A stretch of DNA of 64,000 nucleotides from Eledone cirrhosa (lineage: Eukaryota). The DNA lies in NCBI GenBank assembly GCA_964016885.1, contig OZ024740.1, positions 112,778,001 to 112,842,000 of the forward strand, given 5' to 3'. A program made the position numbers and the translations under genes. Below, piece after piece: positions 38,376 through 62,340 of the stretch; position 1 is the first letter of the stretch, and every line of letters starts with the position of its first letter. The notes under the pieces are model-generated. The model worked only from the letters and a program-made list of their open reading frames with translations, made no database searches and was not told the origin of the DNA.

Positions 38376-38782
38376 TCATTAAATTACCCAAGACACCTCC
38401 AACGAGATATACCTTGGAGGAGGCCAGCTAAACCTGCATAGGTGTGAGCTGTCACACACACACACACACGCACACACACGCGCGCATATATATGTATAAA
38501 TAATAATAATAATAATAATGATTTCATTTATTGGCCACAAGGGCCGACATATAGGGGACAATACAAAAGACTGGGACAGTGGGGTTTTACAGAAAAATCG
38601 AGAAAACAATATGAATAAACAAAGTAACAATAAAGTAACAAGAAAATTACAACAAGAAACCATTCCCCAATAGGGGGGGGATGACCCCCTAGGGTTCGCT
38701 CAGGTATCCCACCAGTCCTGAACGACCCGAGGCTTAGAGAGAACCCTGGAAGGGCACCCCTCTCCTCTTCAAATTTACCTAC

Positions 38783-41700
38783 CTACAGCCGCATGACCAG
38801 AGTAGGCCCACTCACACGGGCCATTCTCGCCACATTCACCCACCTTTCAGCAAATGTACTGGGAGGGGGGGGGGGGGCAGCACTTCTCTCTCCACCCTCA
38901 CCTTCCTTTCCAAGTGAAACTTGAAAAAATTGACGGGGGATTGGCCGAAGAGAAAAGTGTCTGTCTTCAGTCCTTTCAACCTCGTCCACCATACAACCTC
39001 TTTCGCTACTGCCACCAGACAGGAAAATTCCCTGCCCTTCCTGGCCAAAAGAAGGCGGCGGGTCGATCTTCACTATGGACTCGGCCGATAGCCGGATCCG
39101 TTCTACACGCGACAACAGCTGTTTGACATAACTCCACAAGTCAGTAATGCACGGACACTGGACGAGTGCGTGCAGAACGGTTTCGTCGCTCTGCGCGCAT
39201 CTCGGGCAGGTCCGTCTGACAGCACTTCCGTGCCTGTAGAGTTATCTCGAACCGGTAGTGCCCCCCGGTAGCACTGCCAAGCGAGGGATTTTTGGAAATT
39301 ATCCATCGTCCCCGGCTCGAAAGTCTTCCGGTACAGACTGGTTAGTTCAACTTCGTTGACTCCCAGAGCCTCTCCGAGTGCGTCGTCGCACTTGCCCACC
39401 ACTATAGAACTCGAGAGTGGAAGTTCCACTGACCGCATTGCCCGCTTGGTAGAGGGCAGTGAGTGCCTGGCAACATTCCAGATGCCAGTCACCCAGTCTC
39501 GGTCTCTTCTTGACCCAGGACTGCAACTCAGTCAAAGAAACGAGCTGCAGAAAGGCCCGTCTGACAAACGGCGACCACACCTGTTCACCGTTTAGGCAGA
39601 ATATCTGGAGATGCCGCAGCCTCAGCGCGTGCCTGCGCATCATTAGCCACGGCATGCCCAGCCCTCCACGTAGAGGGTGCTGGCAGCAGATGGACCGCCT
39701 CACCAGCGGAACCTGACCCCTCCACAAGAATTTGAAGAGGAGCCGCTCCAAGATGGCGAGGCGCGAACGGGGGCAAGGGACGACAGTCAGACAGTAGTAG
39801 ATGACGGACGCGATGTACGCGTTCGCCACCTCCGCCCGACCTTTCAGTGATAGCTTTCTCCCAGCCCATTTCTGGGTGAGACTGACTACCCTGCCCGTCA
39901 CCTCGTCCCAATTCTTACCCACCTGGAGGTCTGGCCCGAACCAAACCCCTAACAACTTTACCGCTCCGTCCGTCCAGCGCCTAACGACGCTGTTGGACGG
40001 CACGGACTTGCCTCTCCAGGTACCGAGTTGCAAGACCACTGACTTTCCGGGTTAAGTTTTGCTCCCGTCAACCTTTCATATTCCTCCAATAAGTTGCCGA
40101 CCACCTCGATTTCTGAGGTGTCCGACACCATCACGGTGATGTCGTCCGCATAAGCCGACACAGCCTTTCCGCGTCCCGGTTCGAGTGGGATGCCCTGCAA
40201 CAGCTCCAGCTTCCGCAGTAAAGGCTCGAGAGTCAATACGTACAGAAGGGAGGTGAGAGAGCACCCTTGACGGACCGATCGGGGGACCTGAAACGGTTCC
40301 GAGAGGTGACCATTAATTTTGACCACCGAGCAGGTGCCGCTGTGCATTGCAGCGATCTAGCTTCTGAAGACGGGGCCGAAGCCAGCCGCCTTGAGGACAG
40401 CCTCCAGGTACCGATGGTCGACCCTATCGAATGCTTTAGATTGATCTAAATTGATCAGAGCCCCACCGAAGCCAGGTTTACACCCTACCCTCTCTATGAT
40501 GTATCGCATTAGGTGGAGGTTGTCGTGTATGGACCTGGTTGGGATTGCACAAGTTTGCGCCTCCCCAACCAAATCCCCGACGACAAGCGCCAACCTCTTC
40601 GCTAACACCCTGGCCAAAATCTTAAACTCTCTGTTGAGCAGAGTTATGGGCCTGAAATTGTCTAATGTGTCCCTCTTGTTCTCGTCTTTCCTTATCAGCG
40701 TCACTACGCCCCGGCTCACAGAACTGGGAATACTCCCGTTTTGCTGCCAGTTGCAGTAGAGCGCTTCGAGGAGATTGGAGAACAAGTCTGGCATATTTAC
40801 GTAAAGCTCGTAGGGCAGACCATCCAAACCGGGTGACTTGCGCCTCATGCAGCCTACAAGGGCATTCTGAATCTCGGCTGAAGTAATTGGCCTTTCGCAG
40901 CGCCCAGTGTTAGCGTCGAGAGTTGCGGCAAGCCTTCGAGGTAGGGACTGAAGTCCGCCACCATCTCTGACCCGCCACTTCCCCCGAACAACCGAGCAAA
41001 ATGTTGGCGAAAGGCCTCACACATCCTTTTGGAATCGCTCAGAGGAGCCCGTCTCGGTCCGTCAAAGACCGAATCGTGGTTTTATTACCACGCCGCGCCT
41101 CTGCCACGCGGGCCCATCGGACAGCTTTGGTTCCCTCGTTTCTCAGAGCACGCGCCTTAGCTCTGACAATGCAACCTTCGTGTTTCGCATTGAAGAAATG
41201 GTCTAATGCCATTCTCGCCGCTACCACATCAGTTGCAATGCCACTACCAATAGCCTCGTCTAACTTATCTACCAGCTCTCCCTCCTTTCTATTTTTCTCT
41301 AATGCTACTTCTTTGCTAAACTCTATCGACATTACTCTAATCTCTCTTTTGAGAGCCCCCCCACCATCTATTGTTGACGACTCCCCCTGTCAACTTTTTC
41401 TTAACTAAATTGTTGACCTGGTCCCTGTAAGCCTTACGTGCCGGAAATGACATGTTTAGCTTCCAGTAACCAGGTCCTAACCTACGCGTCTTATCTAGGT
41501 CGACCATACAGATCACAAACTTGTGATCTGAATAGGCGACCGTTTCAAAACGTGGACAGCTTACACTATTTCTGTCTATTTTCCTAATGAATATCCTGTC
41601 TATATACGATCTAGATGACCCTATGCGGTTAGCTCAGGTCCACACTGGCGCATTAGGGAAATCTAGTCGGTACCTCTCAGACAGTTGGAACTGGCTGATC

Positions 41701-60690: not shown

Positions 60691-62340
60691 AATAATAATA
60701 ATAATAATAATAATAATAATAATGATAATAATGATGATAATGATGATGATGATGATTTCTTTATTAGCCACACAAGGCCCACATTAAGAAAACTTTAAGG
60801 ATGGCACTGAATATTACAGGACGGTACAGGACGGTACGGGGTGGGTTTTAGTGTGTAACAATGTTTTTAGTAAAAACAAGGATACGTTAAAATTCAAACA
60901 AAATAAATTCCTCAATAAAGGGAAGTTGCAAGCGTGACACTTTGAGAAAGCCCACAAAAGTCCATGGTCACCCTGACCGCTAGGGCAAGTGCCCTCTGCC
61001 AGTTGTCCTCCTCCAATTTACAGGCGCATAATAAGAGCAGGCCCATTCACTCGGGCCATGATCATCTCTCACGCACCTTTCAACAAATTCTTTGGAAGGC
61101 AGCACTTCCCTCTTCACCCCGATTTTCCTCTTCAAGGGAAACTTCAAAAAGATAAACAGGGCTTCTCCAAAGAGGAAAGTGCTTGACATAAACGACCTCT
61201 TTCGTCATGACCACCAGGCAGATAAAAACTGCTTCCCATTCCCGGCTAATGGAAGGCGGTGTGACAATCTTGACGATGGACTCAGCTGATAGCCGGATCA
61301 CTAACAAGCGCCAATCTCGTCGCTAATACCTTGGCCATAATTTTAAAGTCTACATTTACCAGAGGTATGGGCCTAAAATTATCAATATCGCATCCCTTGT
61401 TCTGGTCCTTTCTCAACTGAAAATTCTCCCGTTCGCCTGCCAGTTGCAGTAGACGTCACCCAAGAAATCACCGAACAGGACTAGAATGTAAACGTAAAGC
61501 TCGTAAGGTAGACAACCCAAACCAGTCGATTTGATCCTCGTGCATCCAGTCATAGCCTCCCGTATCTCCGTGGGTGTTATCGTTTTTTTTTGCATCTCTC
61601 TGTCTCCGTGGTCGAGATAGTCACTAAAGTCCATCTCATGATCCGGCCGTCCACCGCTCCCAAACAGCTGAGCGAAGTGCCGCTGAAAAGCTGCATACAT
61701 CTGCTTGGGATCGAGTAACATGCACCCATCGTGGTCCACCAAGAACAGGATTGTGGCCTTGTTGCCACGTCACTCCTCCACCACTCGGGCTCACCGAACA
61801 GCTTTCGTCCACCGTGTCTAAGAGCACACGCCCAAACTCTGACAACGGAGACATCGAGATTGCGTTGAAGAATTGGTCGAGAGACAATCTTGTCGAAAGC
61901 ATGTCAGTTAGCGCCTCTTCTGTCTAGCTGACATCAAGTTTAGTTTTCTCTTTCACTACTCCTTTACTAAAGCTCATCGATCTACTCTAATCACCCTGTT
62001 TAGGGCAATCCACCATTTGTTGTTGACGATGTCGTCTCTGAGGTCAACTACGTTGAATTATGGACAGCCTATGCTAGCTGTATCTACATCCCTACAAAAT
62101 AATCTATCTAGATACGATCTGGATGGCTCGATACGGTTTGTCCATGTCTACATTGGTACATTTGGAAAATCCAGTTGGTACCAGTCAGAGAATTTGAAAA
62201 GACTGTGCAGGTGTGGGAGGCTTTTTACACACTCCTCCTATATCTGCGAGTGCCACACAGTTCCAGCGTACGTCTAAGATACTGCGCCAATCGCCCACTG
62301 ACTTTAAAGCGCGGGGCGTTTCTTGAAAAGTCTCTATCTT
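60691..62340 (-). mobile_element. Tx1 LINE (element E), old, truncated, internally deleted
   Basis: 3' end GGCTAATAAAGAAATC(ATC/ATT)n. ORF2 remnants (YCNWQANG, RLSAESIVKI). The RT core is deleted at a junction near 61300. Confidence 0.85.

Follow-up and report, generated by a model that had tools for sequence, protein, structure and literature searches.

Head-to-tail LINE stacks at ATT tracts in a cephalopod genome, probably built by ATTATT priming and target duplication

Two head-to-tail stacks of LINE copies, linked by (ATT)n, lie on the minus strand of the window, by which we mean the whole 64-kb stretch of DNA analysed here. The explanation that we consider probable is that independent copies of a cephalopod L1-group LINE, likely a Tx1 element, stacked by priming at ATTATT and duplicating their target. 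The (AUU)n end of the RNA would pair with a nicked ATTATT site and prime reverse transcription there. Each insertion would duplicate about 17-21 nt of target and so provide a site for reuse at either side, which would lead to head-to-tail stacking; the junction tracts of 18-24 nt would be mostly this target duplication itself, and (ATT)n tracts would act as hotspots, being runs of primer sites. Element C would have gone into the 5' copy of B's target duplication, and D, F and the SINE into tails, one after another. The endonuclease is probably relaxed, with much of the site choice made by the RNA tail, which would explain element A, whose TGTC tail sits at a TGTC site. Because the SINE duplications start with ATTATT and most junction tracts have the length given above, what is targeted is likely a short primer site, ATTATT, which duplication would keep available.

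Elements of the locus and their classification

The layout is given in Table 1. An earlier note on this DNA had described minus-strand elements joined by (ATT)n as one span; the layout is confirmed, but as two stacks (C-B, and E-D-F-SINE piece) parted by 4.5 kb of other DNA (50226-54706). Element A, a full-length relative in TGTC repeats, was overlooked there.

The open ORF2 of C matches the Pfam models Exo_endo_phos (1.6e-14), RVT_1 (1.3e-29) and zf-RVT (1.1e-8), with no Pfam match to RNase H. The closest solved structure to it is human L1 ORF2p (E 1e-56, residues 4-854), with R2 at 3e-22, among the few clades represented in the PDB. The first frame of the C ORF1 ends at a stop at 48515 and another frame continues to 48090. 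This ORF1 fits the Tx1 type: its neighbours in the Atlas are CCHC-type and ZCCHC3-like (0.88-0.93), and in the Tx1 clade ORF1 is described as RNA-binding plus a CCHC knuckle, not Transposase_22 (PMC5203782). Pfam gives no match for the ORF1 of C and, for that of A, zf-CCHC at E 0.1 only. With an APE, an RT, a zinc finger, no RNase H and a CCHC ORF1, the elements are L1-group non-LTR retrotransposons, and their sequences suggest that they probably belong to the Tx1 clade. Among named relatives, one from Argonauta comes first (67%); no named Tx1 protein appears among the protein matches, and the trees (FastTree, plus a 12-row IQ-TREE without E and 29 other rows) recover a cephalopod clade only. 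A, B and C begin in a common register (G, then AG-Y-R-GAYGT at nt 7-15), and these are therefore real 5' ends. The 3' end of C consists of a hairpin (GGCC-CTTGT-GGCC) followed by AATAAA.

Table 1. Elements, reading frames and ATT tracts in the window
Feature	Position	Strand	Description
Element A	16148..21710	+	full-length relative, 68% aa to C; CTGTCTGTCTGTC before, TGTCTGTCTG after
SINE dimer	25425..25840	+	20-nt target duplication, 1 mismatch, starts ATTATT
SINE, 5'-truncated	26606..26715	+	16-17 nt target duplication, 1 indel, starts ATTATT
SINE, full	26817..27012	-	exact 17-nt target duplication, starts ATTATT
(ATT)7	38499..38519	-	3' of B; tail and/or target-site duplication
Element B	38520..44363	-	full-length, decayed; ORF2 91.5% nt to C
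(ATT)8	44364..44387	-	junction of C 3' end and B 5' end
Element C	44388..50203	-	full-length, nearly intact
C ORF2	44641..48060	-	1139 aa, open; APE 7-226, RT 509-753, zf-RVT 974-1026
C ORF1	48090..49993	-	CX2CX4HX4C knuckle; one frame change in A-rich C-terminal part
(ATT)7	50204..50225	-	5' of C; no recognisable element whose tail it could be
(AAT)6 then (ATT)n	54707..54758	-	tail of SINE piece
SINE 3' half, 5'-truncated	54759..54856	-	about 91% to copies at 25648-25840 and 26817-27012
(ATT)6	54857..54874	-	junction of F and SINE piece
F, 149-bp 3' fragment	54875..55023	-	last 86 nt 87% to C
(ATT)8	55024..55047	-	junction of D and F
Element D	55048..60690	-	full-length, decayed; 71% aa to C
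(ATC)n(ATT)11	60691..60756	-	tail of E, 66 nt
Element E	60757..~62340	-	5'-truncated, internally deleted, most decayed copy

The SINE and the shared 3' end

All three clear SINE target duplications in the window (16-20 nt) begin with ATTATT and lie in unique flanks, against a background outside elements of 0.0007 ATTATT per strand position. A duplication-like remnant separates the two units of the dimer. SINE-like matches at 4870, 23386 and 31626 (>75 nt) and at 35017 have no readable duplication, and the 5' half of the stacked SINE piece was looked for upstream of it and not found. ARAGORN found no tRNA, which leaves a tRNA head of the SINE putative, and three MAGs gave no SINE match.

The 3' ends of the LINE and the SINE have in common a 13-nt hairpin, GAAA and an ATT tail. 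The hairpin has a 4-bp stem and a C-U-H-G-U loop, with 88.5% of cells paired; its covariation is 0.375, compared with at most 0.131 when the stem is slid, and two of the four pairs change on both sides (15 rows, 13 of them distinct, all related, and six of the 15 from loci picked by the motif). Single hairpin folds are not significant on their own (z -2.3 to +0.8). Element D fits the common stem poorly. From the common hairpin and the end of about 30 nt, it seems likely that the SINE is mobilised by this LINE; its driver could instead be another LINE family.

Copy A and relatives elsewhere: endonuclease or RNA tail

Element A carries a TGTC tail and lies in TGTC repeats rather than ATT, with a short apparent target duplication of 10-12 nt. 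It nests among the ATT-tailed copies with only moderate support (83/98); the AU test gives p 0.008 for B+C+D alone but 0.08 once P0001 is included.

Relatives at about 41% amino acid identity occur in animal-like contigs of a GTDB MAG (G001), also in head-to-tail stacks, with up to 13 3' ends on a single contig. Their units are parted, after AATAAA, by a non-repetitive spacer of 17-18 nt and no microsatellite, and two different 5'-truncated units start directly after the spacer (unit positions 3309 and 954). The spacer is no known RNA-gene target, since at gathering score Rfam is blank at four array loci, as it is in our window. Homogeneity in the arrays is 99%, and one of the truncated units has been duplicated, so that DNA-level amplification acts too. 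No clean flank duplication was found around the sole array with both ends visible (C19). Close octopod copies with flanks were sought in metagenome contigs (80 loci, best segments at 22-45% identity), viral contigs and plasmids, and none was found.

These cases bear on the question of where target choice is encoded. It is possible, if rather unlikely, that the endonuclease has a strict (ATT)n specificity like that of Kibi and Koshi, that the tail mirrors the target, and that the enzyme of A has switched to (TGTC)n. Three of the four full-length copies in the window begin at (ATT)n and the fourth, A, at TGTC; the three ATT-tailed ones all begin at runs of at least seven units, and the endonuclease region of A is only 58-59% identical to that of C (about 40% different), as a switch of enzyme would have it. 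Microsatellite-specific Tx1 elements are also documented, their choice being attributed mainly to the endonuclease (PMC4494074). Against strict specificity, the sites occupied by the likely partner SINE are single ATTATT motifs in unique sequence, and in G001 eight subfamilies whose endonuclease domains are 90-96% identical have unrelated sequences after AATAAA (the spacer boundaries were mapped in one). With A on TGTC and these relatives lacking a microsatellite, the earlier note's strictly (ATT)n-specific lineage is too strong a claim.

The short-primer reading that we prefer has a bolder extension, which we offer tentatively and hold to be unlikely: the final 10-20 bases of the RNA itself might program the landing site in this lineage, so that specificity is inherited via the tail. 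Flanking sequence read by a source copy would become the guide for its daughters, and targets could switch without a new endonuclease: ATT to ATT, TGTC to TGTC, and a unique 17-mer to an identical 17-mer ending earlier copies. Such a process would yield self-stacking arrays and would steer an abundant octopus SINE.

ATT tracts at the junctions

All eight tracts of at least six ATT units in the window (seven minus, one plus) lie at element junctions. There are 19 overlapping matches to (ATT)6, compared with none in 100 shuffles, which do not include microsatellite slippage. LINE-adjacent tracts measure 18-24 nt in five of six cases, the exception being the 66-nt tail of E. The earlier note had each 5' end preceded by (ATT)n, and this holds for five of the six (B, C, D, F and the SINE piece) but not for E, where neither an ATT tract before the 5' end nor a duplication is visible. 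Because the other 5' tracts double as upstream tails, that of C is the sole independent test of targeting in the stacks, and the evidence comes from a single window, in which C supplies the one independent 5' ATT junction and A the one TGTC case.

The tracts might be explained with no targeting at all, the 5' ATT being carried by the element as read-through or 5' UTR and the copies building up by chance in a neutral region. The family is very abundant and diverse in sequence, with 40,645 and 57,936 matching contigs in two sequencing runs, so that neighbours are expected, and upstream tails could account for four of the five ATT-preceded 5' ends. In contigs from four runs compared with 44150-50285, rows at the repeats are skipped, and none of the 22 loose ends listed falls at a 5' or 3' junction. 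We nevertheless judge this improbable: element meets element exactly and spacer-free at five places in uniform orientation, the truncated F and SINE pieces start at ATT too, and the SINE target sites start with ATTATT.

Independent insertions and their order

Judged by their sequences, B and C are separate insertions and not a duplication. Their dN/dS is 0.23, 155 of the 282 ORF2 differences fall at third codon positions, and identity is graded by region, the 5' end being at 65-70% and ORF2 at 87-96%. A single insertion copied segmentally or in tandem (unequal exchange between the flanking (ATT)n would be one route) is largely refuted as the origin of the stacks and very improbable. B and C do lie side by side in one orientation, with 86% identity over 5.4 kb, and G001 has homogeneous arrays of relatives, but the dN/dS and graded identity indicate divergence as active lineages, no flanking DNA is duplicated, and D and E are at 50-71% amino acid identity from C. 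The earlier note's proposal that diverged subfamilies inserted independently and by targeting is thereby supported, and segmental duplication, which it had set against that proposal, is rejected for B and C.

Decay allows rough dating of the insertions only: the ORF2 of B has 10 frameshifting indels and two stops, that of D five and three, and E has 25 and eight within 1322 aligned nt. Since the younger-looking C sits upstream of decayed B, C probably reused B's 5' target duplication. The idea of a tail that regenerates its own target and seeds further insertions, also from the earlier note, fits E-D-F-SINE but not C-B, where nearly intact C lies upstream of its decayed neighbour. A degraded duplication may lie around D (CAATGCCATT versus TTATGCATAG).

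Discussion

Tx1 elements that target microsatellites are already known, as are tandems driven by duplication; target choice that follows the tail is the new lead. With this locus an ATT-type (and a TGTC-type) target joins those of the microsatellite-associated L1/Tx1 elements, and an octopus SINE gains a candidate driver. It also provides a natural test of endonuclease against RNA-tail pairing, with close subfamilies that differ in tail and site and a C ORF2 that is open. Should the tail prove to program the site, the element would be a candidate RNA-steerable integrase; otherwise this is an ordinary microsatellite-preferring LINE that stacks by a known route. In O. vulgaris SINEs make up 11.6% of the genome, and the repeat library of the same study has 13 recently active L1-Tx1 families (PMC13282606). 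We found no paper on ATT-targeted or cephalopod target-specific Tx1 elements, or on a pairing of an L1-group LINE with an octopus-type SINE; Repbase, subscription papers and supplements may already describe such families.

Kibi on (TC)n, Koshi on (TTC)n and crocodilian Tx1 families on (TTCC)n/(TTTC)n are likewise APE-type L1-group LINEs within microsatellites, and microsatellite-specific Tx1 families are recognised there by more than 20% of genomic copies being flanked by the same target (PMC4494074). Here the host is a cephalopod, the sequence is ATT (TGTC for A), and a short primer motif, not long arrays, would be the target. Double insertion into a target that has been duplicated gives rise to tandem TE dimers and R1 arrays (bioRxiv 10.1101/158386), and tandem SINEU-3 copies sandwich a TSD (PMC4494074). 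In these too the target is preserved and head-to-tail copies are split by the duplication, with later expansion possible, whereas the stacks described here combine distinct subfamilies (50-90% aa) that differ in apparent age, at a trinucleotide-run site.

L1 and Alu prime from poly(A) on T-rich nicks and insert into older A-tails. In RTE-clade LINEs and SINEs, the 3' microsatellite correlates with the start of the TSD (PMC6007223). As in both, the repeat at the 3' end of the RNA corresponds to the bases with which the target duplication opens; unlike them, ours belongs to the L1 group, has (AUU)n and a 3' hairpin in place of poly(A), and forms LINE-on-LINE stacks. Eel UnaL2 and UnaSINE1 are a stringent LINE-SINE pair. 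A common 3' stem-loop is given as the general rule for such pairs (PMC4824008, PMC3747384), and the LINE and SINE of this locus likewise have a common 3' end with a small hairpin; what differs is the proposed partners, here an L1-group LINE and an octopus-type SINE.

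Stacked LINEs joined by ATT tracts

The DNA of the window is animal and microsatellite-rich, and self-comparison reveals four long related elements (A-D, full-length copies of one LINE family) and two fragments, the 5'-truncated E and the 3' fragment F. The ATT-joined minus-strand stacking described in the earlier note stands as regards its junctions; the elements form two stacks 4.5 kb apart. Every tract of six or more ATT units in the window, eight in all, is at a stack junction, and five of the six LINE-adjacent tracts are 18-24 nt long. ATT was said to precede each 5' end; it adjoins five of six, the exception being truncated E. 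A role as upstream tail is excluded only for the 5' tract of C, before which no element 3' end was found; the other 5' tracts double as tails. Because A, B and C start in the same register, their 5' ends are real. The tail of E, three times the length of the other junction tracts, begins as (ATC)n and continues as (ATT)n; since the elements end in GAAATC, slippage of the terminal ATC is a possible explanation.

Features of the window, with stacks listed in element order
Feature	Position	Strand	Description
A	16148-21710	+	fourth full-length relative, outside the stacks' span
(CTGT)n tract	15958-16147		degenerate; A sits at its end
Stack 1	(ATT)7 - C 50203-44388 - (ATT)8 - B 44363-38520 - (ATT)7	minus	
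Stack 2	E ~62340-60757 - (ATC/ATT)n - D 60690-55048 - (ATT)8 - F (149 bp) - (ATT)6 - SINE 3' half - (AAT)6(ATT)n	minus	
Tail of E	60691-60756		(ATC)n, then (ATT)n
SINE copies	25425-25840 (including a head-to-tail dimer), 26606-26715, 26817-27012		16-20 nt target duplications; the LINE's 3' hairpin
TATG-linked repeat	1-1050, 27447-27658, 30247-31042		several copies, 92-95% identity; possibly a minisatellite-bearing mobile element
Long inverted repeats	11070-11927, 12860-14000, 50287-50506		266 bp (97%), 496 bp (91%), ~94 bp (50416-50506); look like MITE or foldback elements

Identity of the elements

The open ORF2 of C (1139 aa) contains APE, RT and zf-RVT domains, with no RNase H match in a domain search; among solved structures, human L1 ORF2p is the closest to it. 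The ORF1 of C encodes a CCHC knuckle, is similar to CCHC and ZCCHC3-like proteins, and changes frame once where it is A-rich; CCHC-type ORF1 has been linked to Tx1 (PMC5203782). The best named relatives come from Argonauta hians (67%) and the cuttlefish Acanthosepion pharaonis (49%), and in our trees the window copies and the Argonauta protein form a group supported at 100/100, whose sister clade includes the cuttlefish protein. This placement points to an octopod host. Tx1 membership is likely, judging by the L1-like ORF2 and CCHC-type ORF1; the trees themselves show a cephalopod clade. Contigs of the family are numerous and varied in three of the four sequencing runs (40,645, 57,936 and 11,508), against 49 in the fourth.

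Independent insertion and order of events

Segmental duplication, which the earlier note had raised against its own reading, is rejected for the C-B stack: with a dN/dS of 0.23, an excess of third-position differences, and identity that is 65-70% over the 5'-terminal 600 nt and rises to 87-96% in ORF2, B and C, judged by their sequences, diverged as active lineages. Frameshifts and stops in ORF2 (none in C; 5 and 3 in D; 10 and 2 in B; 9 and 1 in A; 25 and 8 in E, where the aligned part is a third as long) provide an apparent insertion order. In E-D-F-SINE the upstream-most copy, E, is the most decayed, as expected if newcomers each entered the preceding tail, and here the idea that each tail seeds the next copy fits. 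It does not fit C-B, where intact C lies upstream of decayed B; C thus likely entered the ATT run left 5' of B, and the target duplication would have been reused as much as the tail.

Shared 3' ends and SINE target duplications

The SINE of the window ends in GGC-CTTGT-GCC, GAAA and ATTATT, the LINE in GGCC-CTTGT-GGCC, AATAAA, GAAATC and (ATT)n. Aligned without gaps, 15 ends (13 of them distinct), which are mutually related and include six from motif-picked loci, show 88.5% pairing in the 4-bp stem and changes on both sides in two pairs, with lower scores for slid controls; single hairpin folds, tested one by one, are not significant. Given these limits we infer the partnership, and regard SINE and LINE as a candidate pair sharing a 3' hairpin. 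Three clear SINE target duplications (17, 20 and 16-17 nt) all begin with ATTATT (background 0.0007 per position), which is present in the upstream flank itself; four other SINE-like matches in the window have no readable duplication. If one enzyme made both kinds of insertion, priming would be at ATTATT with ~17-20 nt duplicated, which inside an ATT run amounts to (ATT)6-7, and the pre-insertion site of C-B would be a single (ATT)7.

A model of target reuse

Nicking and pairing are established steps of target-primed reverse transcription, and our model adopts them by analogy. An endonuclease would nick the target, the RNA 3' end would pair with the nicked strand (at ATTATT for (AUU)n tails), reverse transcription would begin from the paired site, and a second nick ~17-21 nt further on would duplicate the site, either duplicate being reusable by later copies and SINEs. 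Taken as a whole, we consider this the most likely account, with reasonable but limited confidence. Strict enzyme specificity for (ATT)n would be compatible with tail pairing and seems to us rather unlikely.

Element A belongs to the same family and has a different repeat: it carries a TGTC tail, with CTGTCTGTCTGTC before it and TGTCTGTCTG after. Its place among ATT-tailed copies in the trees (support 83/98; AU p 0.08 with row P0001 included) suggests a switch of tail and target within the family.

Stacking in relatives

The nearest relatives that are full-length and have flanking sequence (~41% aa) lie on animal-like contigs, apparently host contamination, within the GTDB MAG G001. In this MAG, labelled Arenicella, LINEs with open ORF2 form long homogeneous head-to-tail arrays (contigs C3-C19; loci L081-L118, L121, L125, L133-L140; 85 ORF2 matches). 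Of 73 matches to a motif, 67 fall at LINE 3' ends, mostly spaced 6.4-6.9 kb apart with up to 13 per contig; of the others, 4 are on the large contig and 2 within a short repeat. Neighbouring units within one array are 99% identical. Neither a microsatellite nor an Rfam family was found between units, so stacking does not require ATT and is, as these arrays read, a habit of the lineage.

One subfamily has a 17-18 nt spacer after AATAAA; two different 5'-truncated units begin directly after it, and it terminates two arrays with different flanks. Across eight subfamilies, with spacer limits mapped in this one, endonuclease domains are 90-96% identical and post-AATAAA sequences unrelated. Three points speak against re-insertion alone: one of the truncated units has been duplicated, binning may have favoured arrays, and where an array can be followed to both ends its flanks form no clean duplication. 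The arrays are possibly a LINE-derived satellite. At 7521-8889 of locus L136 lie non-coding tandem units of 286 and 388 bp, the former ending in the GGC-CTTGT-GCC hairpin, possibly non-autonomous partners stacked like LINEs. A second MAG, G002 (locus L119; labelled Metamycoplasmataceae), likewise contains animal-like contigs that are rich in microsatellites and carry LINEs (29 ORF2 matches).

Comparison with known systems

Tx1 families have been described from (TC)n, (TTC)n, (TTCC)n and (TTTC)n repeats (PMC4494074), and L1-Tx1 is a recognised component of cephalopod genomes (PMC8967140, PMC13282606); the literature searched, with Repbase and supplements outside its scope, yielded no ATT-targeted or cephalopod target-specific Tx1. 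The ATT stacks are a real feature, and the lead to follow is target choice that tracks the tail. Duplication-driven tandems are already known: the route read here for C-B is that of the double insertions reported in P, hobo and R1 elements (bioRxiv 10.1101/158386), and in RTE elements a 3' repeat is linked to the start of the duplication (PMC6007223), similar to the link seen here.
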